Shown: positions 13,361-40,857, counted from the stretch's first letter. The stretch: 61,706 nucleotides of DNA from an uncultured Bacilli bacterium (GCA_947626035.1 CANQQR010000004.1:1-61706); one strand, 5' to 3'. Numbers and translations are program-made. The notes: generated by a model not told the origin, from the sequence alone.

Positions 13361-15475
13361 TTAATCTTTCCTCTCTAACAATTCATCTGCTTTACTAATC
13401 AAATCATGTACTATAATAGACTTACTAACCTCAAGTCTAGTATCAGCATACTCTTTAATCCTATCAATATAACCTGAATCAATTGGCAAATCATTAAGCA
13501 AAATATACTCATCCTTTAAATTACTATAAAACACATTATTAGTAAGAACATTACCATTAGGAAACACAACAATTCTCTCATTACTAGAGAAAACATCGCT
13601 TCCTAATGCATAATTATAATCTAAATTAAACATATTAGCAATAGTAGGAAACACATCCCACATACCCATAACATCCTTAATCTCGCCTTGTAACTTCTTA
13701 TCACTAGTCCAAATAATCAAAGGTGTATTCTTTAAAAGCTCATACTTATAATTATCAATATCAACATAAGTAGGATCACTCTCATCCTTTAAATCATCAG
13801 TATAAGCATCATAATTATATAAAAGTCTCAAATTCTTCTTACCTAACTTACTCTCATGATCTCCATAAATAACAAACACAGTATCTTCATCCAAATTATT
13901 CTCCATAACCATATCAAAGAACTCACCCAAAGCTTCATCAGCATAATGTGCACTCTTCAAATAATTACCCATTTGAGTACCCTCAATATAAGGAACAGTC
14001 ACACTCTCCATAATCTCATTACCATTTTCATCAAACTCTCCTGTACCCTTATCATAAGTAATACTAAAATCCAAATCTCCATACTTACTAACATCATCAA
14101 ACGGACTATGATTACTAAGAGTAATAATAGTACCCATAAAATTCTCATGATCTGCCTTAATATCAGTCAAAATAGGAATAATTTGCTTAAAAAATGACTT
14201 ATCAGAAAGACCTAAACCAACCCAATCTGGGTCACTCTTATCTTTAGGAACAAGATACCTGTCCTTTGCATAAAACTCTTGATAACCCAAAGTCTTATAC
14301 ATAGTTAACCTATTCCAATAAGTAGCCTCATTAGCATGCATACTAAACGTATAATAACCTTTCTTATTAAATTGTTGTTGAAGTGTCTCATAAGTTCTAT
14401 CATAAAAATTAATAAAAACTGTACCACTACTACTTGGAAGAAGACCAGTACTCAAAGTAAACTCAGTATCACTACTAGTACCAACACTAATTTGTGGATA
14501 AAAAGAAGAAAAATACAATCCCTCTTTACTAATCCTATTCAAATTAGGTGTAATAACAGTACCATTAATCTCCAAATCAATCAAATAATTCTGAATAGAC
14601 TCAGCATGAATAAAAATAACATTCTTACCCTCAAAAATATTAGTATACTGATTACTCTCCTTACTAACCTCTCTATTATTATAAAAATCCCTAAAAGTCT
14701 TAACCGCACTATCATAACCAAACATAGAACTAACACTAGGCTCTAAACTCTGAACCAAATCATTAAAAGTATACAAATATAACCCAAACCTTTGCACATT
14801 ATAATCCCTATTCCATTGCTTAATTAACCTACTAGCCTCACTAGGAACCAAAGTAACAATAACAAAAGCAATAATAACAACACCAACAATAATATTACTA
14901 GCAAACATCCTCTTACCCTTTTCATGCTTACCAACCTCAAAATAATAATTCTTCTTACTCAAAACACCATTAACAATAATCATAATTATAGGCGCAATAA
15001 TATAAATAAAATAAATAAGCTCAAGTCTACTAGTAACAGAATCACTAACCTCGCCCAACATAGACAAAGTAGCAAGCAAACTAACACTAACAAAACTCAT
15101 ATAAAAAGTATAATAAATATGATTTATAATACACAAAAATGTATAAAAAACACTAAGACCAAAAAAATACTTAAACTGATTTTTAGGCTTAAACAAATAC
15201 CCAAAACTACCAAGCAAAACACACATAGTAAAATCACATACAAACGCTTTAATATCAAATGCTTCGCCAACAGTAAGAAGCCTTAACAAAAAACCAATAA
15301 AAATAGAAGTACACAAATAAGTCAAAAACAAAACATTAGTAGAAAAATACTTCTTAAAACTTCTTAAAAATTTCCCTAACTTAACTTTAAAATTCTTCTT
15401 ACTAAAAATATCTTTAAATTTAACCTTAATATTCTTCATTTTATCTAACATTTTTCTATACCTCGACACATACAT
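13361..15475 (-). CDS. LTA synthase family protein (sulfatase domain)
   Basis: 704 aa. N-terminal polytopic region plus extracellular sulfatase-like domain (FIHAESIQN, GTSSDTEFT, YGDHES). Confidence 0.8.
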   Translation of the reverse strand: MYVSRYRKMLDKMKNIKVKFKDIFSKKNFKVKLGKFLRSFKKYFSTNVLFLTYLCTSIFIGFLLRLLTVGEAFDIKAFVCDFTMCVLLGSFGYLFKPKNQFKYFFGLSVFYTFLCIINHIYYTFYMSFVSVSLLATLSMLGEVSDSVTSRLELIYFIYIIAPIIMIIVNGVLSKKNYYFEVGKHEKGKRMFASNIIVGVVIIAFVIVTLVPSEASRLIKQWNRDYNVQRFGLYLYTFNDLVQSLEPSVSSMFGYDSAVKTFRDFYNNREVSKESNQYTNIFEGKNVIFIHAESIQNYLIDLEINGTVITPNLNRISKEGLYFSSFYPQISVGTSSDTEFTLSTGLLPSSSGTVFINFYDRTYETLQQQFNKKGYYTFSMHANEATYWNRLTMYKTLGYQEFYAKDRYLVPKDKSDPDWVGLGLSDKSFFKQIIPILTDIKADHENFMGTIITLSNHSPFDDVSKYGDLDFSITYDKGTGEFDENGNEIMESVTVPYIEGTQMGNYLKSAHYADEALGEFFDMVMENNLDEDTVFVIYGDHESKLGKKNLRLLYNYDAYTDDLKDESDPTYVDIDNYKYELLKNTPLIIWTSDKKLQGEIKDVMGMWDVFPTIANMFNLDYNYALGSDVFSSNERIVVFPNGNVLTNNVFYSNLKDEYILLNDLPIDSGYIDRIKEYADTRLEVSKSIIVHDLISKADELLERKD

Positions 15476-15504
15476 TATATCAAAATAATATGCACATTTT
15501 CAAC

Positions 15505-15548
15505 AAATAAAATAAAAAGACAAAAATATCTTTACATATTCCTGTCTT
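15505..15548 (-). terminator. rho-independent terminator closing the paralog locus
   Basis: Coding strand AAGACAGGAATAT-GUAAAG-AUAUUUUUGUCUU (13 pairs including two G-U) followed by UUUAUUUUAUUU. Confidence 0.7.
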
Positions 15549-16137
15549 AAGGTAACTTAGTTGTACCCTCTTTATAAGTATCATTATAATATAATGTACT
15601 ACCAGTAGTATCAACATAAAGTGTTCCATCAAACTTCTTACCTTGACTCTCATTTTGATTAACACTAGTTTCAGGCAATTCCATAGTAAGACTATAAGTA
15701 ATAACTGTCTCACTCTCACTTGGTGGAAAACTCTTATCAACTATCACAATATCTTTTTGTTCTCCACTACTATCTAACTCTATCTCTCCAACTGCACCAG
15801 AACCCTCAGTCTCACTAGTAACACTAGCAACAAGCCCTGGCATAGTATTAGTATACATTAACTTAATCTTAATAGGCCTTGTAGCATCACTAGCACTACT
15901 AGTAATAGTAAACGTCTTAGTCTCTTTCCAACTAGGCTCAATATTAGTTGCAGTCTTAAAATCAGCACCACCATCAAACTTAATAACACCAACATTAGCA
16001 CTACCAACATTAATAACAGGCTCGCCAGTAGTATTCATTTTAGCAGTAAAATAAGCGAAAGTAACACCAATAACCGTAACAATAACAGTCGCAATAGTCA
16101 ACACAACCAATATAATCTCATGCTTTCTACTCTTCAT
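15547..16137 (-). CDS. diverged TasA/camelysin-like secreted protein (paralog I)
   Basis: N-terminus MKSRKHEIILVVLTIATVIVTVIGVTFAYFTAKM (TFAYFT motif). Mature part carries EPSWKETKTFTIT and NESQGKKFDG, homologous to the PGW and QQG islands of the cassettes. Confidence 0.7.
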   Translation of the reverse strand: MKSRKHEIILVVLTIATVIVTVIGVTFAYFTAKMNTTGEPVINVGSANVGVIKFDGGADFKTATNIEPSWKETKTFTITSSASDATRPIKIKLMYTNTMPGLVASVTSETEGSGAVGEIELDSSGEQKDIVIVDKSFPPSESETVITYSLTMELPETSVNQNESQGKKFDGTLYVDTTGSTLYYNDTYKEGTTKLP

Positions 16138-16154
16138 AATAATTCCTTTCCAAC

Positions 16155-16760
16155 TTACAAATTAGGACTACCCTTAGCAATTATCTTACCCTCAAAAACC
16201 TTTCCTTGTAAATTATTTTGATTTTCTCCATTATCAAGAAATTTAACAGTCAATGTATATCTATGAGTAACACCGGTATTAATAGTACCAGTACCAATAC
16301 TAGAACTAGCACTAGGAACAATAAGTTCTCCAGGAATAGTAACCACCCTATTAGTATCACTTATAGGAACATTAACATCTCCTCTAAAACTAGTACTACT
16401 TAAAGTATAAACAAACGACTCATCATTAATAGTATTCTTATCAACATACCAATACAAAGTATAATCTCCAATAGCATTCTCAACTTGACTAACATTAGCA
16501 ATAGTAAACACTAACTCTTGACTCCAACCAGGTTCAACACTATCTGCATTAATATCATTCTCAGCATAAAAAGTAGTCATAATCTCTGAAACAGCTTGCA
16601 TACCAACCTCACCATTAGTATCATTACCAACAACACCAGAAAGCCAAAAAGCATAAGTAGTACCAACACTTACTGATATAAATGATAAAACAGAAACAAT
16701 AGCATAAATATAACTTCTAATAGAAAGCTTTAAATCATCTCTACTCTTTTTATCTTTCAT
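16155..16760 (-). CDS. diverged TasA/camelysin-like secreted protein (paralog H)
   Basis: Start moved to ATG 16760 (GGTGA SD): MKDKKSRDDL.., TM, GTTYAFWLSG. EPGWSQELVFTIAN and NNLQGKVFEG islands. Confidence 0.65.
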   Translation of the reverse strand: MKDKKSRDDLKLSIRSYIYAIVSVLSFISVSVGTTYAFWLSGVVGNDTNGEVGMQAVSEIMTTFYAENDINADSVEPGWSQELVFTIANVSQVENAIGDYTLYWYVDKNTINDESFVYTLSSTSFRGDVNVPISDTNRVVTIPGELIVPSASSSIGTGTINTGVTHRYTLTVKFLDNGENQNNLQGKVFEGKIIAKGSPNL

Positions 16761-16966
16761 ATAATCACCATATCTTACATATATTACTATATAATATAAT
16801 ACCAATAATTCCAAAAAAAAACAATACCAAAAGAAAAAAACACGCAAAAAATTAAATGACCCAATATCACTCTAAAAATAAAATAATAACCCCAAATAAC
16901 AAAAAACACACACTTCTACTTCCCCAAATAGTAAATTAACTATGTTCTTTCTTTCTCTTATCTCTT

Positions 16967-17617
16967 CTATTCTTCAAATGGATTTTTTTCTGTTCCTTGT
17001 GGGTTATCATTATTGTAGTAAATAGTATCGCCACTTGATAACTTACATGAAACTGTCGCTGCAATACTTGCTCCTTGTTGTTCATTTTGAGGAACTTCTG
17101 TTTCCTTGAAAGTTATTTTATATTTGAAGTTATGTACTAAATCACTTCCACTAGCATCTATTGTTCCAGTTGCTAATGGTATTGTTTGTGAGCCACCTGT
17201 AATCTTTACACCATCGCCATCTCCAGTGAATGCTTCATCAAGTTTAGCACCAGTTCCAGCAGTTGCAGTTACATACAAATCAGTAAAAGCAGTTTTTCCA
17301 TCGACACCTGAGTCAGCAGAAGCAGTATTTGAAGTAACTTCTAAATTACATACATAGTTAAATGTACTTTGACCCTTTGTTGCTGTTATAGTTACTGTTT
17401 GATCTTTACTGTCCCAACCTGGTAATATTTTAGTACCAGTTACAGCAGCAGTTTCATACTTAATTGTTCCTAGTTGTGCTGCTCCAACTTCTACATTTGC
17501 AGGATTACCTTGCATTGTTGTAGTGAAATATGCAAATGTAGCACCGATTATAGCAACTAAAAGTGTAGCAATTCCAATTACTGATAAGAATATAGTTTGC
17601 CCTCTATTATCTCCCGT
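16967..17617 (-). CDS. cassette G: full-length secreted-protein frame lacking a canonical start (ACG at 17615-17617)
   Basis: The frame is open from the TAA at 17648-17650 down to the stop at 16967. It encodes ..TGDNRGQTIFLSVIGIATLLVAIIGATFAYFTTTMQGNPANV... I found no in-frame ATG/GTG/TTG upstream of the internal Met used by the ORF track. Confidence 0.6.
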   Translation of the reverse strand, partial: TGDNRGQTIFLSVIGIATLLVAIIGATFAYFTTTMQGNPANVEVGAAQLGTIKYETAAVTGTKILPGWDSKDQTVTITATKGQSTFNYVCNLEVTSNTASADSGVDGKTAFTDLYVTATAGTGAKLDEAFTGDGDGVKITGGSQTIPLATGTIDASGSDLVHNFKYKITFKETEVPQNEQQGASIAATVSCKLSSGDTIYYNNDNPQGTEKNPFEE

Positions 17618-17678
17618 CTCCTCCTCCCCACACTCATAAATAGTAAATTAACTATGTTCTTTCTTTCTCTTATCTCTT
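17516..17678. repeat. inter-cassette junction repeat (F 3' tail + G leader)
   Basis: Contains the leader block and ataaatagtaaattaactatgttctttctttctcttatct. Recurs at 18237-18409, 18932-19113, 19606-19787 and 20286-20453, with partial copies at 16925-16966, 20955-21041, 21345-21406 and 21905-22006. Confidence 0.9.
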
Positions 17679-18338
17679 CTATTCTTCAAATGGATTTTTT
17701 TCTGTTCCAGTTTGATTTTCATTATTGTAATAAAGTTCGCCTTTACCTGTTAACTTACATGAAACTGTTGCTGCGATAGTTGCTCCTTGTTGTTTATCTT
17801 GAGACTCATTTTTATCTTTGAAAGATATTTTGTATTTGAAGTTATGTTCTAAATCACTTCCATTAGCATCTATTGTTCCAGTTGCTAATGGTATTGTTTG
17901 CACAGCGCTTGTACCGTCTATTTGCACACCATCTTCACTTGAAGTTATAGCATTATCAATTTTAGCACCAGTTCCAACAGTTGCAGTTACATACAAATCA
18001 GTAAAAGCAGTTTTTCCATCAACACCTGAGTCTTCAGAAGCAGTATTTGTAGATACAATTAAATCACATTCATATTCGAATGTACTTTGACCTTTTGTTG
18101 CTGTTATAGTTACTGTCTTATCTGTACTGTCCCAACCTGGAAATATATTAGTAGCTTCTGTAACAGGTTCAGCAGAATAAGAAATAGTTCCTAGTTGTGC
18201 TGCTCCAACATTTACATTTGCTGCTTTACCTTGCATTGTTGTAGTGAAATATGCAAATGTAGCACCGATTATAGCAACTAAAAGTGTAGCAATTCCAATT
18301 ACTGATAAGAATATAGTTTGCCCTCTATTATCTCTCGT
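17679..18338 (-). CDS. cassette F: full-length frame, ACG at 18336-18338
   Basis: Same leader. The mature region is closely related to cassette G (TVTITATKGQSTFxYxC.L, TAFTDLYVTAT, tail YYNNxNxxGTEKNPFEE). Confidence 0.6.
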   Translation of the reverse strand, partial: TRDNRGQTIFLSVIGIATLLVAIIGATFAYFTTTMQGKAANVNVGAAQLGTISYSAEPVTEATNIFPGWDSTDKTVTITATKGQSTFEYECDLIVSTNTASEDSGVDGKTAFTDLYVTATVGTGAKIDNAITSSEDGVQIDGTSAVQTIPLATGTIDANGSDLEHNFKYKISFKDKNESQDKQQGATIAATVSCKLTGKGELYYNNENQTGTEKNPFEE

Positions 18339-18409
18339 TTCTTCCTCTCCACACCCATAAATAGTAAATTAACTATGTTCTTTCTTTATTTATTTATTTT
18401 TGCTCGTTA
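18237..18409. repeat. inter-cassette junction repeat (E/F)
   Basis: See 17516-17678. The 3' element is partly diverged here (..ctttctttatttatttatttttgctcg). Confidence 0.85.
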
Positions 18410-19033
18410 TTAATGACTTTGTTCTGTGAAATGTTGTCCATCTTCTTCGCCAGATAGCTTACATGAAACTGTTGCAGCAATATTAGCTCCTTGTTGTTCA
18501 TTTTGAGACTTATTTGTATCTTTGAAAGTTAATTTATATGTGAAGTTATGTATTAAAGTAGTTCCATTAGCATCAATTGAACCAGTCGCTAATTTTATTG
18601 TTTGTGGTGCTTCTGTAGCTTCTATCTTTACCCCATCGCCTTGAGTTAATCCAGTTTCAACAGTTGCACCAGTTCCAGCAGTTGCAGTTACATATAAATC
18701 AGTAAAAGCAGTAGCTCCATCAACACCTTCAGCTGCAGCAGTATTTGAAGATACGACTAAATTACATTCATATTCAAATGTACCATTACCTTTAGTAGCA
18801 GTTATTGTTACTGTTTGATCTTTACTGTCCCAACCTGGAAATATATTAGAACCAGTTACAGCAGCAGCAGTAAAACTAATACTTCCTAATTGTGCAGCAT
18901 TCACAGTTACATCTTTTGCTTGTCCTTGCATTGTTGTAGTGAAATATGCAAATGTAGCACCGATTATAGCAACTAAAAGTGTAGCAATTCCAATTACTGA
19001 TAAGAATATAGTTTGCCCTCTATTATCTCCCGT
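18410..19033 (-). CDS. cassette E: full-length frame, ACG at 19031-19033
   Basis: Same leader. Mature region of the E/F/G subfamily with a unique C-terminal tail (..SGEEDGQHFTEQSH). Confidence 0.6.
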   Translation of the reverse strand, partial: TGDNRGQTIFLSVIGIATLLVAIIGATFAYFTTTMQGQAKDVTVNAAQLGSISFTAAAVTGSNIFPGWDSKDQTVTITATKGNGTFEYECNLVVSSNTAAAEGVDGATAFTDLYVTATAGTGATVETGLTQGDGVKIEATEAPQTIKLATGSIDANGTTLIHNFTYKLTFKDTNKSQNEQQGANIAATVSCKLSGEEDGQHFTEQSH

Positions 19034-19113
19034 CTCCTCCCCTCCACACCCATAAATAGTAAATTAACTATGTTCTTTCTTTCTCTTATCTCGTTTTGCT
19101 TATTATTGTTGGT
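18932..19113. repeat. inter-cassette junction repeat (D/E)
   Basis: See 17516-17678. Confidence 0.9.
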
Positions 19114-19707
19114 CTATTGACCTTTTTGTTGTGAATCTGTGTATTTTGCTTCGCCTGATAGCTTACATGTTACTTGTCCAGCAATGTTTCCACCTTGTTG
19201 CTCATTTTGTTCTTCATCATCTTTGAAAGCTAGTTTATAAGTAATTGTATGTATTGCTTGTTCTCCAGTTGTTTCTATAGTACCATGTGCTATTTTTAAT
19301 GTTTGAACACCTTCTGCTCCATCAGCTGAACTTATTTGTTTACCTTCGCCAGAAAAGCCATCTTCAATTGTAGCATTAGAAGACTCAGCACTAAAATACA
19401 AATCGGTAAATTTAGTATTTGCTGTCACTTCTAAATTACATTCATAATCAAATTTACCTGCACCACCTGCAGCAACAGTTATTGTTGCGGTTCCTGTCTT
19501 CTCCCAACCTGGAAATATATTAGAATCTGTTATTCCAGTTGCAGTATAAGTAATTGTAGGTAATGTTGCTGAACCAACATTAATATCGCCTTGAGTTCCT
19601 GTCATTGTTGTAGTGAAATATGCAAATGTAGCACCGATTATAGCAACTAAAAGTGTAGCAATTCCAATTACTGATAAGAATATAGTTTGCCCTCTATTAT
19701 CTCCCGT
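19114..19707 (-). CDS. cassette D: full-length frame, ACG at 19705-19707
   Basis: Same leader. The mature region is near-identical to cassette C over long stretches. Tail GEAKYTDSQQKGQ. Confidence 0.6.
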   Translation of the reverse strand, partial: TGDNRGQTIFLSVIGIATLLVAIIGATFAYFTTTMTGTQGDINVGSATLPTITYTATGITDSNIFPGWEKTGTATITVAAGGAGKFDYECNLEVTANTKFTDLYFSAESSNATIEDGFSGEGKQISSADGAEGVQTLKIAHGTIETTGEQAIHTITYKLAFKDDEEQNEQQGGNIAGQVTCKLSGEAKYTDSQQKGQ

Positions 19708-19787
19708 CTCCTCCCCTCCACACCCATAAATAGTAAATTAACTATGTTCTTTCTTTCTCTTATCTCGTTTTGCTTATTATTGTTGGT
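19606..19787. repeat. inter-cassette junction repeat (C/D)
   Basis: See 17516-17678. Confidence 0.9.
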
Positions 19788-20402
19788 CTATTGACCTTTT
19801 TGTTGTGAATCTGTGTATTTTGCTTCCCCAGATAACTTACATGTTACAGCACCAACAATACTACCGCCTTCTTGTGAAGTTTGAGGCTCATCTGTATCTT
19901 TAAAAGTTAGTTTATAAGTAATTGTATGTGTTGCTTCTGTTCCAGTTGTTTCTATAGTTCCGCTTGCTATTTTTAAAGTTTGAACGCCCTCTTCTCCGTC
20001 AGCAGAACTTATTTGTTTACCTTCGCCAGAAAAACCAGATTCAATTGTTGCATCAGAAGATTCAGCACTAAAATACAAATCAGTAAATTTAGTGTTTGTT
20101 GTTACTTCTAGACTACATTCATACTCAAATTTACCAGCACCACCTGCAGCAACTTTTATAGTCGCAGTTCCTGACTCAGACCAACCTGGAAATATATTTG
20201 TGCCAGTCAAAGCAGTTGCAGTATAACTAATTGCTGGTAATGTCGCAGCTCCAACATTAATACTACCTTTTTGAGTTTCTTGCATTGTTGTAGTGAAATA
20301 TGCAAATGTAGCACCGATTATAGCAACTAAAAGTGTAGCAATTCCAATTACTGATAAGAATATAGTTTGCCCTCTATTATCTCCTGTCTCCTCCTCCCAC
20401 AC
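19788..20402 (-). CDS. cassette C: in-frame GTG (20400-20402) but no SD; ACA at the homologous start position
   Basis: MWEEETGDNRGQTIFLSV... The purine tract upstream is 1 nt shorter than in D-G, which brings the GTG into frame. Confidence 0.6.
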   Translation of the reverse strand: MWEEETGDNRGQTIFLSVIGIATLLVAIIGATFAYFTTTMQETQKGSINVGAATLPAISYTATALTGTNIFPGWSESGTATIKVAAGGAGKFEYECSLEVTTNTKFTDLYFSAESSDATIESGFSGEGKQISSADGEEGVQTLKIASGTIETTGTEATHTITYKLTFKDTDEPQTSQEGGSIVGAVTCKLSGEAKYTDSQQKGQ

Positions 20403-20453
20403 CCATAAATAGTAAATTAACTATGTTCTTTCTTTCTCTTATCTTATTTCTCT
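20286..20453. repeat. inter-cassette junction repeat (B/C)
   Basis: See 17516-17678. Confidence 0.9.
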
Positions 20454-21125
20454 TTAGTCTCCACTTTGATTACTTTGTGTATAATGAGCCTCGCCTGACA
20501 ACTTGCATATTACTTGTGCTACAAGATTACCCTCTTGTTGGTCGTTTTGGTTATCATTATTATCTTCAAAATCAATTTTATATTTGAAGTTATGAGATAC
20601 ACTATCACCAGTTGTTGTAATAGTTCCGCTTGCTAATTTTATAGTTTGAACACCTTCTGCTCCATCAGCAGAACTTAATGTTTTAGCACTTTGAACACCA
20701 GTATCAATTTCAGCACCTGTTCCAGCTGTAACTGTTAACTTTAAGTCTTTAAATTTTTCATTAGTAGTTACTTCTAGATTACATTCATACTCGAATGTAC
20801 CTGCACCACCAGCAGCAACAGTTATAGTAGCTGTTTTGTCTTCACTTGTCCAACCAGGGTATATATTACTTGCAGTTATAGCCTCAGCAGTATAACTAAT
20901 TGCTGGTAATTTAGCAGAACCTACATTAATTTTACCTTGATTTTCTCCTGTCATTGTTGTAGTGAAATATGCAAATGTAGCACCGATTATAGCAACTAAA
21001 AGTGTAGCAATTCCAATTACTGATAAGAATATAGTTTGCCCTACCGCCGGAGGGTAGTAAGTAGTAAATAAAACATATAAACAACTTATCAACAAAGAAT
21101 TAATTAAAACTACATACACATCCAC
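20454..21125 (-). CDS. cassette B: conserved leader from GQTIF onward, replaced 5' end
   Basis: Upstream of GGGCAAACT the shared sequence is replaced by ..TACTACCCTCCGGCGGTA.., a GC-rich 16-mer. The only in-frame start is the distant GTG at 21125, so the true start is uncertain. Confidence 0.5.
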   Translation of the reverse strand: MDVYVVLINSLLISCLYVLFTTYYPPAVGQTIFLSVIGIATLLVAIIGATFAYFTTTMTGENQGKINVGSAKLPAISYTAEAITASNIYPGWTSEDKTATITVAAGGAGTFEYECNLEVTTNEKFKDLKLTVTAGTGAEIDTGVQSAKTLSSADGAEGVQTIKLASGTITTTGDSVSHNFKYKIDFEDNNDNQNDQQEGNLVAQVICKLSGEAHYTQSNQSGD

Positions 21126-21315
21126 AACCTAATAACAAAGTATATAAAATATAAAATAATATCAACAACATATACACAACTAAATTAATAAACAAGTAAC
21201 ATAATTTTTAAATCAAAAGAAATATAAAAAACTTCTAAAAAACATTAAATAACATAAATGATTTTTAGAAGTTAAAATGCCCATAAAAAAAAGACCATAA
21301 ATAATCTTTATTTAC

Positions 21316-21335
21316 AGTCTTAGTTAGATAAGACT
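21316..21335 (-). terminator. hairpin after cassette A (possible partial or bidirectional terminator)
   Basis: AGTCTTA-N6-TAAGACT, a perfect 7-bp stem. The T-run is immediate only on the plus strand. A second 11-bp inverted repeat sits at 21231-21272. Confidence 0.35.
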
Positions 21336-21406
21336 AACTTTTTTATAAATAGTAAATTAACTATGTTCTTTCTTTCTCTTATCTCGTTTTGCTTATTATT
21401 GTTGGT

Positions 21407-22006
21407 CTATTGACCTTTTTGTTGTGAATCTGTGTATTTTGCTTCCCCAGAAAGTTTGCAAGTTACTGTAGCTGCGATGTTTCCACCTTGTTGCTCGTTT
21501 TGCTCAATTTCAGTATCTTTGAAGTCTAGTTTGTAAGTAAATGTATGTGATGTAGCACTTCCTGTAGCTTCAATTGTTCCACTTGCTAATTTTATTTCTT
21601 GAACACCTTCTTCTCCGTCTTCTGAACTTATTGTCTTTGGACTTTGAACACCAGCATCAATAGTAGCACCTGTTCCAGCTGTAACAGTTAATTCTAAATC
21701 TTTAAACTTAGTATTAGATGTTACATTTAGAGTACATTCATAAGCAAATTTACCTTTACCACTGTCGTCAACAGATATAGTTGCTGTCTTTTCTCCACTA
21801 GACCATCCAGGGTATATATCACTTGCAGTTATCGAATCAGCAGAATATGTGATTTTTGGTAATGTTGCAGACCCAACACTGATATTACCTTGAGTTCCTG
21901 TCATTGTTGTAGTGAAATATGCAAATGTAGCACCGATTATAGCAACTAAAAGTGTAGCAATTCCAATTACTGATAAGAATATAGTTTGCCCTCTATTATC
22001 TCCCAT
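21407..22006 (-). CDS. cassette A: TasA/camelysin-like secreted protein, canonical expression copy
   Basis: AAAGGAGG-N9-ATG. MGDNRGQTIFLSVIGIATLLVAIIGATFAYFTTTM signal, 199 aa. Own promoter upstream. Confidence 0.85.
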   Translation of the reverse strand: MGDNRGQTIFLSVIGIATLLVAIIGATFAYFTTTMTGTQGNISVGSATLPKITYSADSITASDIYPGWSSGEKTATISVDDSGKGKFAYECTLNVTSNTKFKDLELTVTAGTGATIDAGVQSPKTISSEDGEEGVQEIKLASGTIEATGSATSHTFTYKLDFKDTEIEQNEQQGGNIAATVTCKLSGEAKYTDSQQKGQ

Positions 22007-22034
22007 AGTTCTTTACCTCCTTTACTATATACAA

Positions 22035-22063
22035 TGATATCAATTTTTATTTATAAAAGCAAG
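22035..22063 (-). promoter_or_regulatory. sigma-A-type promoter for cassette A
   Basis: Coding strand TTGCTT (22063-22058), a 17-nt spacer ending TGA, then TATCAT (22040-22035), i.e. an extended -10. Confidence 0.55.
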
Positions 22064-22114
22064 CAAAAAATGCAAAATATTGTAAAAATATTTCCCACCA
22101 CACATAATTAACCA

Positions 22115-22156
22115 TACAAATATAACAAAGAGTGACTAATTGTTAGCCACTCTTTA
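22115..22156 (-). terminator. rho-independent terminator of the giant repeat-protein gene
   Basis: AAAGAGTGGCTAA-CAA-TTAGTCACTCTTT (13 pairs, one G-U) starting 6 nt after the stop, followed by GTTATATTTG. Confidence 0.7.
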
Positions 22157-22161
22157 TCACA

Positions 22162-25059
22162 TTATTCATTAACTTTAACTTGTAATCTTGTATAAAATAC
22201 CTTACCTTTATCAGCACTTTGGTCTTCATTAGTATTTTTAAATTCAAAAGTCAATTTATAAGTATGAGTTTCCCCAGCTTTAATAGTTACATCCTTAAGC
22301 ATCTCTAACCCATTGTCAGATGGGTAAGGAACTCTACCCTCATTTAAATCTACAATAGTTTCGTCATTTCTAGTAATACCATAATAAAGTCTATTCTTAA
22401 AATTAAACGTATTAACTATATCTGTCCAAATAATACTATAAGTAACATCAGTATCTCCCTCATTCTTAATAGTAAAATTCTTACTACCTTTCCATCCAGG
22501 CGCAATACTTTGGTCTTTAAGTTCAGTATCATCTAAGAAAGTTAAATTAAATGTATCTCCTTGACCAGTACCAATAACAACATCCTTTAAATCACTAGGT
22601 GCATTTTCTCCAGTCTCTATAGGGTACTTATCAACCTTACCATCTCTATCTGTATCAATATTTCCGTCAGGTGTTCCATCTCCATCTAAATCAACATTCA
22701 AATCAGGTTTACCATCTCCATCAATATCAACATTAACATCTGGTAATCCATCATTATTAGTATCACAATTCAAATCACACTTACCATCATTATTAGTATC
22801 TTGATTAGTTAAATTCTTATCTGGTTTACCATCTCCATTAGTATCAACATTAACATCAGGTACACCATCTTTATTCATATCTAAATTAGTATCAGGTTTA
22901 CCATCCTTATCATTATCAACATTAGTATCAGCCTTACCATCTCCATTAACATCAATATTAACATCAGGTGTTCCATCACTATCAGTATCGCAATTCAAAT
23001 CACACTTTCCGTCTCCATCCTTATCAACATTCAAATCAGGCTTTCCGTCTCCATCAGTATCTAAATTACTATCAACCCTACCATCATTATTATTATCACA
23101 GTTTAAATCACACTTTCCATCTCCATCTGTATCTTGATTAGCAGGATTATCATCAGGTCTACCATCTCCATTAATATCTATATTAGTATCAGGCCATCCA
23201 TCCTTATTAGTATCACAGTTTAAATCACACTTTCCATCTCCATTAGTATCTTGGTCAGTTAAATTCTTATCTGCTTTACCATCTCCATCAGTATCAACAT
23301 TAACATCAGGCTTACCATCCTTATCTAAATCCAAATTAGTATCAGGATTTCCATCTCCATTAGTATCACAATCTAAATCACACACACCATTACCATCAAT
23401 ATCAACATTCAAATCAGGAATACCATCTCCATTAGTATCACAATTAACGTCGCATACACCATCCCCATTAGTATCTTGATTACTCTTATTACTATCAGGA
23501 TTTCCATCTCCATTATTATCTAAATTAGTATCTGGTACACCATCCTTATTAGAATCAATATTAGTATCAGGTTTACCATCTTTATTAGTATCACAATTAT
23601 AGTCACAAATTCCATCATGATTAGTATCAACATTAGTATCAGGTTTACCATCTCTATCTAAATCTAAATTAGTATCAGGAATACCATCCCCATTATTATC
23701 ACAATTTAAATCACATACACCATCTTTATTAGTATCTTGGTCAGTTAAATTCTTATCTGGTTTACCATCTTTATTAACATCACAGTTAAAATCACACTTA
23801 CCATCTCCTGTAACATCAATATCAGTATCAACATTACCATCTTTATTATTATCACAATTTAAATCACACTTACCATTACCAGTAATATCAACATTAGTAT
23901 CAGGCCATCCATCTCCATTATTATCGCAATTCAAATCGCACTTACCATCTCCATCAGTATCTTGATTTAACTTATTCTTATCTGGCTTACCATCTCCATC
24001 CTTATCAACATTAACATCAGGATTACCATCCTTATTAATATCTAAATTAGTATCAGGATTACCATCTTTATTAGTATCACAATTTAAATCACACTTACCA
24101 TTACCACTAACATCAACATTAGTATCAGGCCATCCATCTCCATTAGTATCACAGTTAACATCACACTTACCGTCTCCATCAGTATCTTGATTTAACTTAT
24201 TCTTATCTGGCTTTCCATCTCCATCCTTATCAACATTAACATCAGGCTTACCATCTTTATTAATATCTAAATTAGTATCAGGTTTACCATCTCTATTAGT
24301 ATCACAATTTAAATCGCACTTTCCATCTCCATCTTTATCTACATTCAAATCAGGATTAGTCTCTCTACTATAATCTTTATTAAAAGAACCCTCTCCATAA
24401 TTATCTCCATTAGATAAATTCTTATCTGCTTTACCATCTCCATCAGTATCGCAGTTAACATCACACTTACCGTCTCCATTATTATCTACATTCAAATTAG
24501 GCTTCCTATCTCCTGTAGTATCACAATTCAAATCACAAATACCATCATTATCTGTATCTAAATTCAAATCTGGTATACCATCTCCATTAAAATCTAAATT
24601 AGTATCAGGCTTACCATCCTTATTAGTATCACAGTTAACATCACATACACCATCTTCATCATAATCTTGATTAATCAAATTCTTATCTGGCTTTCCATCT
24701 CCATCAGTATCTATATTAAAGAATGGAACCATAGTATCTCTATACCCAAGATTAATATCAGGTATACCATCATCATTAGTATCACAGTTAACATCACAAA
24801 TACCGTCTCCATCAGTATCAACATTCAAATCAGGCCATCCATCTCCATCAGTATCAATATTAAGCTTCAAATGTGCCTTTTGAAAATAATTCAAAACAGA
24901 CCAAGTAGACGCTATTGTTGCAAGCATAAAAAGCAACAATGCAAAAATAATCAAAATAACTCTCTTATTTTTCTCAGCCTTACTCTTAGGCTCCTCAAAA
25001 TAAAGCCCATCCTCTTCAATAATCTTTTTCTCTTCATCATTATAAGGCTCTTGTCTCAT
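22162..25059 (-). CDS. giant secreted/anchored Cys-rich calcium-binding repeat protein (thrombospondin type-3-like repeats) with C-terminal cassette-type beta-sandwich domain
   Basis: Start taken at ATG 25059 (AAGGTGA SD). N-terminal TM/signal ..ATIASTWSVLNYF. Dozens of DxDxDGxxDxN and CDxNCD units. The C-terminal ~160 aa carry APGWKGSKNFTIKN and DQSADKGKVF islands. Confidence 0.8.
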   Translation of the reverse strand: MRQEPYNDEEKKIIEEDGLYFEEPKSKAEKNKRVILIIFALLLFMLATIASTWSVLNYFQKAHLKLNIDTDGDGWPDLNVDTDGDGICDVNCDTNDDGIPDINLGYRDTMVPFFNIDTDGDGKPDKNLINQDYDEDGVCDVNCDTNKDGKPDTNLDFNGDGIPDLNLDTDNDGICDLNCDTTGDRKPNLNVDNNGDGKCDVNCDTDGDGKADKNLSNGDNYGEGSFNKDYSRETNPDLNVDKDGDGKCDLNCDTNRDGKPDTNLDINKDGKPDVNVDKDGDGKPDKNKLNQDTDGDGKCDVNCDTNGDGWPDTNVDVSGNGKCDLNCDTNKDGNPDTNLDINKDGNPDVNVDKDGDGKPDKNKLNQDTDGDGKCDLNCDNNGDGWPDTNVDITGNGKCDLNCDNNKDGNVDTDIDVTGDGKCDFNCDVNKDGKPDKNLTDQDTNKDGVCDLNCDNNGDGIPDTNLDLDRDGKPDTNVDTNHDGICDYNCDTNKDGKPDTNIDSNKDGVPDTNLDNNGDGNPDSNKSNQDTNGDGVCDVNCDTNGDGIPDLNVDIDGNGVCDLDCDTNGDGNPDTNLDLDKDGKPDVNVDTDGDGKADKNLTDQDTNGDGKCDLNCDTNKDGWPDTNIDINGDGRPDDNPANQDTDGDGKCDLNCDNNNDGRVDSNLDTDGDGKPDLNVDKDGDGKCDLNCDTDSDGTPDVNIDVNGDGKADTNVDNDKDGKPDTNLDMNKDGVPDVNVDTNGDGKPDKNLTNQDTNNDGKCDLNCDTNNDGLPDVNVDIDGDGKPDLNVDLDGDGTPDGNIDTDRDGKVDKYPIETGENAPSDLKDVVIGTGQGDTFNLTFLDDTELKDQSIAPGWKGSKNFTIKNEGDTDVTYSIIWTDIVNTFNFKNRLYYGITRNDETIVDLNEGRVPYPSDNGLEMLKDVTIKAGETHTYKLTFEFKNTNEDQSADKGKVFYTRLQVKVNE

Positions 25060-25331
25060 ACTATTCACCTTCCTATTATCTAATATAAATAATAACACAA
25101 TTAAATAACTAAAGCAAACAAAATAAAACTAAGATTTACTATTTTTAACTCTTTAATGAAGTAATAGGTATAACATACACCCCATCATCCCTCATATAAA
25201 CAGCATTTGTCATCCCACAAATCACACATACAAATTCACTTTTTTCATTTCCATTACCACACTTTTTTAATAAGATAAGATTTACCAGACACTGTCTAAC
25301 ATTTTTTAACTCATAAAAAATGAAACAAAAC

Positions 25332-38410: not shown

Positions 38411-38629
38411 TCAAGAATTACTTAAACTTATCTGTATATCTTTTGTAAGAACATCTGAATAAGAAAAACTTTTAACAAAATTAACAGTACTAAAAGTAAA
38501 CAAACATGGATAAACCTTTAAAATTTCTCCCTCATAATACTCATACTTATTTCTTCCAACATTCACTTTAATCCTAACCCTTTTACCAATAATCTTCTCT
38601 AACTCATTCTTAATTTTCTCTATATTCAT
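38411..38629 (-). CDS. veg: Veg protein
   Basis: 72 aa. IKNELEKIIGKRVRIKVNVGRNKYEYYEGEILKVYPCLF..SFSYSDVLT. Synteny with yabG and rsmA. Confidence 0.85.
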   Translation of the reverse strand: MNIEKIKNELEKIIGKRVRIKVNVGRNKYEYYEGEILKVYPCLFTFSTVNFVKSFSYSDVLTKDIQISLSNS

Positions 38630-39399
38630 GCATCCTCATTTCTAGGGTAACCAACATACATAGTACCCTTACACTTTAATCCACCCATCCCATCATGTCC
38701 ATACTTAGTCTTAGACAAAAGATTAAGTAAATCAATATCTTTACTCCTATCTAACAAACTAAGTGACGTTGCAATAATCGCAGGATCCAAAGCATGAATA
38801 TTTATTCTCTTAGGACTAGAAGCAAAAGTAGCACCACTCTTTATAAGCTCTTCATAATTACTCTGACACGCTCCCGCAATTATAATAAGTTTATCACTTG
38901 ACTTCTCAAACTTCCTTGCAACACTAACAGCCTTACAAAAACTCTCACTATTCTTATAATCACTATTAGAGTTCTCCCTAGCCTTATGATAAGCATCATG
39001 TCCAGTAATAATCAAAATATCAGGGTTATACTGATTCAAAAACTTAGGTAGCTCTTTATAAATCTCACTTTCCTTAACACACTTACCATATGCTAAAACA
39101 TTATTCTTTTTATAAAAATCCATACACCTACTTAAATAAGACTTATCAGCATCAATATGTAACACTTTCCCAGGTAAATAAAAATACTCATTCCTATCTA
39201 AATTCAAATCAATAAGAGGACAAAAATCATCTTTCATCTTACCCCTATCACAAACAACCAAATCTTGAATAGGCGCATCAGCACTTAACCTAACAAAAGC
39301 ACCCTTTAAATAACAAACATTACCTATAACACCTGTAACCTCAAAAACAATATCATTTGAATAACTCTTCCTAGTAACATAATCCCCCGTGTTAATCAT
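38626..39399 (-). CDS. yabG: sporulation-specific peptidase YabG
   Basis: GDYVTRKSYSNDIVFEV..LKGAFVRLSADAPIQDL.., ILIITGHDAY. Start at ATG 39399 (AGGGGG SD) rather than the ORF-track 39483. Confidence 0.85.
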   Translation of the reverse strand: MINTGDYVTRKSYSNDIVFEVTGVIGNVCYLKGAFVRLSADAPIQDLVVCDRGKMKDDFCPLIDLNLDRNEYFYLPGKVLHIDADKSYLSRCMDFYKKNNVLAYGKCVKESEIYKELPKFLNQYNPDILIITGHDAYHKARENSNSDYKNSESFCKAVSVARKFEKSSDKLIIIAGACQSNYEELIKSGATFASSPKRINIHALDPAIIATSLSLLDRSKDIDLLNLLSKTKYGHDGMGGLKCKGTMYVGYPRNEDA

Positions 39400-39451
39400 A
39401 AAATAACCCCCTAAATAAATATATGAAAAACTAAATAAAACATGAAAAAAA

Positions 39452-40243
39452 CTAACTACATAAATAGTTAGCCACAAACACAAAATCCAAAACCGTCAAC
39501 TGTTCAGCCCTATAAGTCAAATCTTTCCCAATATTCCCTAATGCTTCACTTAACTTATCTAAATCATAACTACCCAAATTATTCCTTAAATTCTTTCTCT
39601 TATGCACAAAAGCATCCCTAACTAACTTAAAAAACAAATCTTCATCCTCTAAATAAAGCTTATCTTTTTTCCTAGTAAACTTAACCACAATACTATCAAC
39701 ATTAGGCTTAGGAACAAAAGAATTCCTACTAACATCAGTAACCTTAGTAATATCAAAATAATACTGTAAAAAAACAGACAAACTACTATAATCCTTAGTA
39801 TTAGGTAAAGCCTTAAACCTATTTCCAACTTCCTTTTGAACCATTATAATCATTTCATCAATACTAACCTCATTCATAACCTTATTTATAATAGGTGTAG
39901 TTATATAATAAGGTAAATTAGCAATCAAATGAACTTTCTTATACCTAAAATTAGACAAAATAAGCCCTAAATCAGCACTCAAAAAATCCCCAAAAACCAA
40001 AGTCAAATTATCATACTCTTTCTTAATCTCATTAAGTTTATCAGTAAGCCTACTATCTATCTCAAAAGAAATAACAGGCACACCTAAAAGAACTAATCTC
40101 TTAGTCAAACTTCCACTACCAGCACCAACCTCTATTATAAGAGAATCCTTTGTAATAGAAGATGCATTAATAATCTTATCTTTAATATTATTATCAATAA
40201 GAAAATTCTGTCCTAAACTTTTCTTAAAACTAAACTCACTCAT
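39452..40243 (-). CDS. rsmA: 16S rRNA (adenine1518/1519-N6)-dimethyltransferase
   Basis: FKKSLGQNFLIDNNI, IEVGAGSGSLT, NLPYYITTPI. Confidence 0.95.
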   Translation of the reverse strand: MSEFSFKKSLGQNFLIDNNIKDKIINASSITKDSLIIEVGAGSGSLTKRLVLLGVPVISFEIDSRLTDKLNEIKKEYDNLTLVFGDFLSADLGLILSNFRYKKVHLIANLPYYITTPIINKVMNEVSIDEMIIMVQKEVGNRFKALPNTKDYSSLSVFLQYYFDITKVTDVSRNSFVPKPNVDSIVVKFTRKKDKLYLEDEDLFFKLVRDAFVHKRKNLRNNLGSYDLDKLSEALGNIGKDLTYRAEQLTVLDFVFVANYLCS

Positions 40244-40857
40244 TAATTAAACCTATTCCCATAATATGCTATATAGTTTTCACTGTAACCATATGTCCCC
40301 CAAGACCTAAAACTATAATAATTATTATTTCTTACACCATTCAAAGCATCACTAACAACCTCTTCTACAAGATTAGTAGAAGACTTTAGTGACCCATCAT
40401 CATTTAAATACCTTAAATAATAACCATCAAAATAACCTGCAAACTGACCTGGACTAGTAACCACTTCTACTGGTGTCTTACCAGCATCACTTCTATTCAA
40501 AATAACACTCATAACAGCTAAAATATCATCCCTATTAGTATGACTCTCACTAGCCACAACAGCTATAAAGAAATTATAATCACTTGCTGGAATCTCATAC
40601 TTTCTATTATTATTAGTAACAACAAAACCCTTTTCAGGTAAACTAGTATACTTAGTTAACTCAGGATTTTCTTGTAAATAAATATCTTTCTTATTATCTT
40701 CTATAAGAGCGCGTTCAAGTGCTTTACTCTCATTTTCATTCTTTGTATTTAACACATCATAAACCACATTAGTTGTTCTTCCTAATGTAAAAATAATTAA
40801 AAATACAATAAATAATCTGGTATAAGTAAACCATTTCTTCGGTTTGTATACTTTCAT
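40243..40857 (-). CDS. cell wall hydrolase (SleB/CwlJ Hydrolase_2-like)
   Basis: N-terminal TM. FFIAVVASESHTNRDDILAVMSVILNRSD resembles the Hydrolase_2 core. Confidence 0.55.
   Translation of the reverse strand: MKVYKPKKWFTYTRLFIVFLIIFTLGRTTNVVYDVLNTKNENESKALERALIEDNKKDIYLQENPELTKYTSLPEKGFVVTNNNRKYEIPASDYNFFIAVVASESHTNRDDILAVMSVILNRSDAGKTPVEVVTSPGQFAGYFDGYYLRYLNDDGSLKSSTNLVEEVVSDALNGVRNNNYYSFRSWGTYGYSENYIAYYGNRFN

Follow-up and report, generated by a model that had tools for sequence, protein, structure and literature searches.

In Neisseria, the major fibre subunit PilE is reportedly varied from the silent pilS copies by RecA-dependent gene conversion, with conserved segments as crossover points and a conserved element at the 3′ end, and in Borrelia hermsii the Vmp (vlp/vsp) system is said to combine one expression site with archived, promoterless, full-length genes and with upstream and downstream homology sequences. 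Cassette-based antigen variation is, to our knowledge, known almost wholly from pathogens (Borrelia, Neisseria, Anaplasma, Mycoplasma and Treponema); for gut commensals it is chiefly invertible promoters that have been described. Here we describe a tandem array of seven paralogous, head-to-tail cassettes (A to G) in a 61,706-nt stretch of DNA from an uncultured Bacilli bacterium, referred to below as the window, and compare it with these systems. Among the accounts on which the comparison draws, one covers Vmp cassette switching in relapsing-fever Borrelia (PMC12510640) and one contains a description of vls conversion as ‘random, segmental, and unidirectional’ (PMC11499132).

We consider recombination among the cassettes, within a layout of one expression site and a silent archive, to be the best explanation for this locus, a reading that we hold with as much reserve as conviction. 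Judged from its flanking signals, cassette A alone appears to be expressible, and the six others are probably silent. The initial annotation, made by a model from the sequence alone, had described seven cassettes whose similarity was patchy and had attributed this to repeated short-tract gene conversion. Its description of the cassettes was accurate, but it missed that A alone carries a promoter, a ribosome-binding site, an ATG and a terminator, and it is through this restriction of the expression signals to A that recombination acquires a possible direction and purpose.

Array layout and expression signals

All seven cassettes are present within 16967-22006, as originally reported, and all are co-oriented, with no inverted repeats found in 15000-23000. 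The array, its units and the signals of A are as follows.

16926-22062, minus strand: tandem array of seven paralogous head-to-tail units, A-G
21407..22006, minus strand: cassette A, 199 aa; the only copy with full expression signals; body nearest to B (73% nucleotide identity), tail of C type
20454..21125, minus strand: cassette B; body intact, family homology beginning only at GGGCAAACT (21042)
19788..20402, minus strand: cassette C; ACA (20385-20387) instead of ATG, GTG (20402) in frame
19114..19707, minus strand: cassette D (19114-19605 and the signal part to 19707); ACG (19705-19707) instead of ATG
18410..19033, minus strand: cassette E; ACG at 19031-19033; unique tail
17679..18338, minus strand: cassette F; ACG at 18336-18338; leader with four G-to-A changes
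16967..17617, minus strand: cassette G, the final unit of the array; ACG at 17615-17617
22034..22062, minus strand: promoter of A (TTGCTT, 17-nt spacer, TGaTATCAT as extended -10), aligned with orthologue promoters
22004..22023, minus strand: ribosome-binding site (AAGGAGG) and start codon of A, AAAGGAGGTAAAGAACTATG; the leader of copy 1 in the related loci L003, L009 and L011 has the same sequence
21285..21321, minus strand: intrinsic terminator after A (14-bp stem, loop AGA, U8); RNA fold -16.6 kcal/mol, z=-2.97

Cassette products comprise 192-214 residues counted from GQTIFL (~195 aa), with GQTIFLSVIGIATLLVAIIGATFAYFTTTM at the N-terminus and, after it, a variable part in which Thr, Gly and Ala abound. 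Across the variable parts, nucleotide identity is 73% for A-B, 83% for C-D, 75-76% for E-F and E-G and 82% for F-G, and lies at 60-72% between these three groups.

The promoter of A matches, column for column, the orthologue promoters in five related loci (L003, L009, L011, L002 and L019), and A holds the only in-frame ATG of the array ahead of the signal peptide; it is the only copy in which signals for the start of both transcription and translation are predicted. Exactly at the position of this ATG, D, E, F and G have ACG and C has ACA. No in-frame ATG, GTG or TTG occurs in D upstream of the signal peptide, and in C a leader shorter by 1 nt brings a GTG into frame, without a ribosome-binding site. 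No family-type promoter and no terminator was found for C-G. The 5′ end of B is disrupted. Ahead of the point where family homology sets in stand a 69-nt in-frame insert with the GC-rich CCCTCCGGCGG, a GTG in frame that no ribosome-binding site precedes, and a -10-like remnant, TTGATATTAT at 21156-21165, which aligns with the family -10. The whole region upstream of B (21033-21165) resembles a decayed family promoter and leader, in which GTGGATGTGTATGTAG aligns with ATGGGAGATAATAGAG, and the GC-rich sequence that closes the insert is odd for this genome. We also considered a programmed frameshift from an ATG of a short upstream reading frame in the leader into the cassette frame, and rejected it, there being no slippery site and no ribosome-binding site at that ATG.

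A scan of GTDB species, in which the source species is not included (best match 46% identical), yielded 78 related loci from other species, used for comparison only. An ATG lies 16-32 codons before the GxTFAYF motif in 133/134 full-length copies from these loci (at codon 35 in the last), and a ribosome-binding site is found in 128/133 of them, as against 1/7 in the window. Each of these copies also has its own promoter and terminator. The apparent silencing of six of seven copies is specific to the window when it is set against the sister arrays.

Although they lack start signals, B-G remain coding-competent, with 0 in-frame stops compared with 13-28 in each of the other frames. Their dN/dS values range from 0.27 to 0.72 (C-D, Fisher p=5e-8). 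These values below 1, the intact frames and the drift of leaders beside unchanged blocks (described below) suggest that the silent copies are maintained by purifying selection. For positive selection, sliding-window pN/pS reaches ~1 in one loop only (codons ~113-135) and is never clearly above it. Public gene calls for D-G (19114-19605, 18410-18931, 17679-18236 and 16967-17515) take as their start the internal Met with which the signal peptide closes, giving proteins of 163-185 aa (P0003, P0105, P0122 and P0123), and so protein catalogues built from metagenome-assembled genomes (MAGs) of this kind hold versions of the cassettes that lack the signal.

Identical flanks around variable bodies

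Two blocks, both 100% identical between copies, bracket the variable part of the cassettes, including that of A.

21902..22004, minus strand: 5′ homology block in A, coding GDNRGQTIFLSVIGIATLLVAIIGATFAYFTTTM; defined by exact identity runs
20946 (B), 20283 (C), 19589 (D), 18929 (E), 18234 (F) and 17513 (G), minus strand: equivalent 5′ block ends
16927..16952, minus strand: 3′ box core after G, the 26-mer AGAAAGAACATAGTTAATTTACTATT, which follows every cassette
21348-21373, 20408-20433, 19729-19754, 19055-19080, 18360-18385 and 17639-17664, minus strand: the other copies of the 3′ box

Identity with A in the 5′ block extends over 101-117 nt in C-G and 97 nt in B and is perfect in all 21 cassette pairs; for D, E and G its first base is the G of A's ATG. 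None of the ~23 synonymous sites in its first 90 nt (alignment columns 1-90) differs in any of the 21 pairs, against a body pS of 0.22-0.59; synonymous divergence (dS) in the bodies is 0.27-1.2. Because the same 105 nt are usually only 81-97% identical between paralogues in other species' arrays of this family, the perfect identity seen here goes beyond protein constraint alone.

The 3′ box measures 31-41 nt (~40), is 100% identical throughout and follows all seven stop codons. Its core, ACATAGTT(A/G)(A/G)TTAC, also occurs in orthologues from many related species, 3-12 nt past the stop codon (L003 9861, L009 3051, L019 8591/9319/10017, L066 8640 and others), and on account of this conservation the box is an inherited element of the 3′ untranslated region and not a recombination arm alone. 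It is possibly a protein-binding site or a small hairpin. In genomes resembling Clostridium sp. CAG:628 the box takes the form of a palindrome, TTAAC-ATA-GTTAA.

Between the 3′ box and the 5′ block lie 27-nt leaders in which 3-4 positions differ among C, D/E, F and G (11-15%), compared with 0 in the flanking blocks; the adjoining 103-nt and 40-nt blocks are unchanged in all seven copies. The longest perfect direct repeat covers 224 nt (18929..19152, minus strand, equal to 19603-19826), and its two arms, each running through tail, 3′ box, leader and 5′ block, enclose the body of D.

The leaders of C, D, E and G (20379-20407, 19697-19729, 19023-19055 and 17607-17638, minus strand) are rich in purines and in G, for example GGGTGTGGAGGGGAGGAGACGGGAG; no other tract in the window reaches 14 G in 25 nt, and the genome has 28-35% GC. 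They may be relics of ribosome-binding sites or recombination-stimulating sequences; a canonical G-quadruplex motif of four runs (G3x4) was not found in them. Within the signal-peptide codons of all seven 5′ blocks, on the coding strand, lies TTGGAA-N19-TGCTATAAT, a perfect extended -10 (21936-21966 in A), whereas TGnTAnAAT occurs at this position in only 6/134 relatives. This internal element could start transcripts that lack the signal peptide, or could be a chance outcome of codon choice.

Mosaicism at the 3′ end

Every instance of motif sharing listed in the initial annotation is present in the cassette alignment. A and B share ITAS(D/N)IYPGW and KFKDL.LTVTAGTGA; the tail GEAKYTDSQQKGQ and the 3′ flank are common to A, C and D, and the C-terminal end of B is GEAHYTQSNQSGD; C and D have a near-identical centre and differ at the N-terminus of the mature part; TAFTDLYVTAT.GTGA is common to E, F and G; and the tail YYNN..GTEKNPFEE is common to F and G, that of E being its own. 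The conclusion that this similarity is patchy rather than tree-like was nevertheless overstated, since neighbour-joining trees of segments show the bodies to be mostly tree-like. Over the first ~300 variable nt the grouping is (A,B), (C,D), (E,(F,G)), with bootstrap values across alignment columns 91-390 of 97-98% for AB, 86-100% for CD and 99-100% for EFG, and the tree breaks only towards the 3′ end, where columns 586-654 give ACD (99%) and AC (90%). There the mosaic is significant.

21345..21451, minus strand: recombinant tract in A, spanning the final 15 codons, the stop codon and the 3′ flank; shared without a difference with C (19726-19832, 107 nt) and D (19052-19152, 101 nt)

Recombination was detected by the pairwise homoplasy index (PHI, p=0.026) and by the neighbour similarity score (NSS, p=0.0002). 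In a GENECONV-like permutation test the A-C tail tract alone passed Bonferroni correction (p=0.010), with A-D (0.052), E-G (0.063) and B-C (0.084) borderline. MaxChi, run on all 105 triplets with 20,000 permutations and a Bonferroni threshold, returned four significant triplets, namely A(B/C), A(B/D), A(B/G) and C(A/B), with breakpoints in columns 455-585 and p=5e-5 for A against both B/C and B/D; A(B/E) and F(C/E) were borderline, at the threshold. The N-terminal difference between C and D and a B-C patch are real, but non-significant after correction.

Cassette A therefore combines a B-like body with a C-type tail, the 107-nt tail having been copied from C, or the reverse. Identity between A and C is no more than 69% when the entire variable region is compared, against 100% in this tract, and A, C and D, whose bodies are only 69-83% identical, have in common a tract of 101-107 nt with 100% identity. 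The breakpoints fall in the conserved VTCKLSGE codons, where E changes partner too, a pattern that homologous exchange at short conserved stretches would produce.

With a significant 3′ tract and a 3′ tree that differs from that of the bodies, a single tree does not describe all segments. That homologous exchange has occurred between members of the array is well supported, both by the tract shared among A, C and D and by the identical 5′ block. The repeated short-tract mode originally proposed is undemonstrated, only 2-3 junctions exceeding chance, all of them at the 3′ end, and block-wise sharing can be taken as a sign of recombination in kind, not of its frequency or mode. The exchange could be gene conversion or unequal crossing-over, which a single genome cannot separate. 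Comparison with related genomes and strains, which had been suggested as a check, was informative for the sister species, in whose arrays the bodies follow orthology, but not for the two contigs of the same strain described below.

A model for variation of the expressed cassette

It is plausible that RecA-type homologous recombination between cassettes has produced the mosaicism and kept the flanks identical, and that its anchors would be these flanks and short conserved motifs, the VTCKLSGE codons among them. In this model gene conversion bounded by the 5′ block and the 3′ box could copy a silent body or, by a second route, the DNA between two 5′ blocks could be deleted. Either route would place a new body behind the promoter and ATG of A and, less certainly, would change the exposed part of a surface-fibre subunit. 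Because homology with A begins one base past the T/C difference in the start codon, such recombination should be able neither to inactivate A nor to activate a silent copy in place.

More tentatively, and as a possibility that we would stop short of calling probable, we propose that this is an archive system of an RF39-like gut commensal, with one expression site, six complete cassettes lacking a start codon, and arms of 103 nt and 40 nt, that varies the major subunit of a TasA-like or pilus-like fibre, that it is the first in its lineage and family, and that it has recently evolved from an array of independently expressed paralogues.

Alternative explanations

An ordinary birth-and-death array of paralogues, in which B-G were recently silenced and are becoming pseudogenes, and in which a handful of unequal crossovers or conversions, serving no programmed role, left behind the mosaic tail and the identical flanks, is the alternative that survives best, and we regard it as unlikely. 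In its favour, most of each body (~80% of its length) follows one tree; just 2-3 junctions are significant; 74% of the body of A has no exact 14-mer in any other cassette, so that A, unlike vlsE or an expressed vmp, was neither copied lately nor pieced together from the donors now present and is traceable to one of them, C, in its last 107 nt; no protein joining the N-terminus of A to another body, as a switched variant would, was found in a collection of 15 billion proteins in which the species is sparsely sampled; cassette dN/dS is above that of the expressed orthologues in relatives (0.11-0.32); and relatives commonly have tandem arrays of 2-10 copies with no silencing. The tree-like bodies, the 74% of the body of A that matches no donor and the missing switched variant also weigh against an archive, as do a dN/dS no lower than that of paralogues elsewhere, the 3′ box, whose identity may reflect another function, and the lack of a recombinase nearby, which RecA-dependent conversion would not require. 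A decaying array would, however, have had to keep all six start-less frames intact and to let its leaders drift by 11-15% beside blocks that stayed unchanged in seven copies, and drift would hardly arrive at an array in which promoter, ATG and terminator are uniformly absent from five consecutive spacers.

That all cassettes are expressed seems improbable. Here D, E and G would start at ACG 5-7 nt past GGAGG, and C and B at GTG, on transcripts supplied by read-through, by the -10-like remnant of B or by the extended -10 inside the 5′ block, and several isoforms would be made, for example as minor subunits. The retention of a GGAGG-type purine tract at that distance from ACG in D, E and G is consistent with this, as are the remnant upstream of B, the perfect extended -10 in every 5′ block and intact frames under purifying selection. 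Yet the ACA of C is not a near-cognate start and its GTG lacks a ribosome-binding site, F has a degraded purine tract, read-through from A would meet a strong terminator, the signal peptide would be missing from transcripts of the internal -10, and 134/134 relatives start at ATG. ACG initiation in bacteria runs at ~1% or less of the ATG level.

Material from other samples bears on the assembly itself. Two contigs, L087 (6142 nt) and L088 (3242 nt), found through the 196-aa neighbour of the array in two other samples, are 100% identical to the window and, as this makes them the same strain, are uninformative on variation; L088 independently confirms the 3′ half of G at 100% identity. L001 (2278 nt), which shares its sample of origin with L087, matches the window exactly in the bodies of E and F and in the flanks, but has the body of C (100%) in the slot of D, behind a D-type leader. 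This arrangement resembles a recent D-to-C conversion, but it may also be a deletion or a mis-assembly, because the sample holds the identical strain at low coverage (2.5-3.8x, with L001 at 3.8x), the joins run through perfect repeats of 103-224 nt, and mis-assembly would give the same contig. L001, L087 and L088 between them carry the ACG leaders and the bodies of C, E, F and G at 100% identity, so these donor bodies are the same across samples. The contigs from other samples break inside the array and none found by exact-protein look-ups reaches A: BrkB gave only contigs of 1.3-2 kb that stop short of A, and the 978-aa neighbour and G gave no match. A 40-mer of the 5′ block had no match in JGI metagenome contigs.

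An assembly artefact, in which order, copy number and long identical tracts stem from mis-joined repeats in a short-read metagenome assembly, would accommodate L001, coming as it does from a sample with the same strain, as well as the broken contigs and the perfect repeats of 101-224 nt, which are longer than usual k-mer sizes, but we judge it very improbable, because the body of A and its join to the shared tail are unique sequence that no other cassette could supply, bodies and ACG leaders recur in independent assemblies, and mis-joins, which may alter order or copy number, cannot create divergent bodies or within-body mosaic statistics.

None of these rivals jointly explains the intact frames, the drifted leaders beside perfect blocks and the uniform loss of promoter, ATG and terminator in five consecutive spacers, and it is for this combination that we prefer an expression site with a silent archive.

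Protein family and genomic context

On the strength of structural modelling, the cassette product is probably exported or located at the surface, with a beta-sandwich fold and a hydrophobic helix at its N-terminus. The AlphaFold2 model (pLDDT 79.7) consists of an N-terminal helix and a beta-sandwich, for which Foldseek returned only weak beta-sandwich matches in the PDB (FimG and birnavirus VP2; TM ~0.3), and variable positions are somewhat enriched outside the strands. No cassette matched a Pfam or NCBIfam model above cutoff, and a sequence profile search of the PDB gave nothing meaningful. The family is uncharacterised and comprises 2572 clusters at 50% identity (E<=0.001), its hosts being uncultured gut Bacilli MAGs labelled ‘Tenericutes’, ‘Mycoplasmatota’ or Clostridium sp. 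CAG:628.

The array lies in a conserved, housekeeping neighbourhood in the order GGDEF, BrkB, 978-aa repeat protein, array, paralogues of 230 aa and 196 aa, LtaS, TilS and FtsH, the 196-aa paralogue being 31% identical; CAG:628-like genomes show the same synteny with two copies instead of seven. Directly upstream of the array, the 978-aa protein (22162-25098, minus strand) contains dozens of Asp-rich repeats (DTDGDGKCDLNCDTN...) and a C-terminal domain with the PGW-type motif of the cassettes, and NCBIfam gives it only compositional matches to Ser-Asp repeat adhesins. As a tip or adhesin, this protein may partner the cassette product. Pfam scans of 48 open reading frames in the window, of 54 listed at >=120 aa, found no recombinase or integrase, no reverse transcriptase and no S26 signal peptidase (SipW), and Rfam gave no RNA family in 15-23 kb. 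Domains of a YabG-type sporulation peptidase and a SleB-like cell-wall hydrolase occur at 38626-39483 and 40243-40857, which would be unexpected if the organism belonged to the reduced gut lineage labelled ‘Tenericutes’. A larger, fully expressible array is found in a MAG from rabbit gut (L072, 3794-12054), where ten family copies form five tandem two-gene units with two subtypes alternating, each unit having a (TA)n-rich promoter region.

If the archive reading is true, the same solution for variation would have arisen in an uncultured gut Bacilli commensal with a reduced genome, where the pressure could be immunoglobulin A or phages. As sister species keep each paralogue independently expressed, their comparison with the window would capture the step from a co-expressed family to an archive used one copy at a time. 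The protein family concerned is large yet unstudied, with no Pfam or PDB relative, and the signal-less versions produced by gene callers affect the protein catalogues built from MAGs.

Comparison with known systems

Two classes of variation system find no counterpart here. For site-specific inversion (Mycoplasma vsa/vsp/vpma, shufflons and invertible promoters), neither inverted repeats in 15000-23000 nor an adjacent recombinase was found, and for a diversity-generating retroelement the Pfam scans gave no reverse transcriptase.

The cassette proteins resemble TasA and camelysin (PF12389) in a G-A-T-F-A-Y-F-T motif similar to the SipW-type signal, in PGW and QN.QQG motifs within a beta-sandwich, and in the presence of several related subunits of different sizes at the locus. 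No cassette matched PF12389 (Peptidase_M73), for which a distant relative, P0199, scored 21.2 bits against a cutoff of 22.5. A likewise had no match to TIGR04088; 3/36 relatives matched it weakly (best E=0.015), and the neighbouring 196-aa paralogue scored 18.5 against a cutoff of 19. The top Foldseek matches, at TM ~0.3, were FimG and viral jelly-rolls, not TasA.

As in tandem families of bacterial surface proteins that evolve in concert through partial gene conversion, the flanks and signal-peptide codons are homogenised, the exposed regions are diverse and the paralogues are mosaic. What separates the window from such families is that the sister arrays keep a promoter, ribosome-binding site, ATG and terminator for each paralogue, with bodies that follow orthology.

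With pilE/pilS the array shares silent copies, interspersed conserved and variable segments and a conserved 3′ element after the gene. The pilS copies, however, lack the 5′ constant region, whereas the cassettes keep it and lack the ATG only, and a canonical G-quadruplex is missing here. A match of the type IV prepilin kind was not found in Pfam/NCBIfam, structure or Foldseek searches, the fold being a beta-sandwich.

Like vlsE of Borrelia burgdorferi, the locus has a single expression site beside a contiguous silent array, with segmental exchange. The vls cassettes, however, are internal fragments, ~90% identical and in one continuous frame, of which vlsE is wholly a patchwork, while the cassettes described here are full-length and 60-83% identical, and A can be traced to a donor in its last 107 nt alone.

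It is the Vmp switching of relapsing-fever Borrelia that the anatomy of this locus appears most to resemble. Differences are apparent here too. The array is chromosomal, contiguous and in one orientation and not on linear plasmids, its silent copies are also without a start codon, it does not encode lipoproteins, none of the silent copies is a twin of the expressed one, and switching is putative. In both, however, one copy has the promoter and the silent copies are complete, and the 5′ element over the start and signal-peptide region, together with the conserved 3′ element, could bound the conversion of a whole gene.

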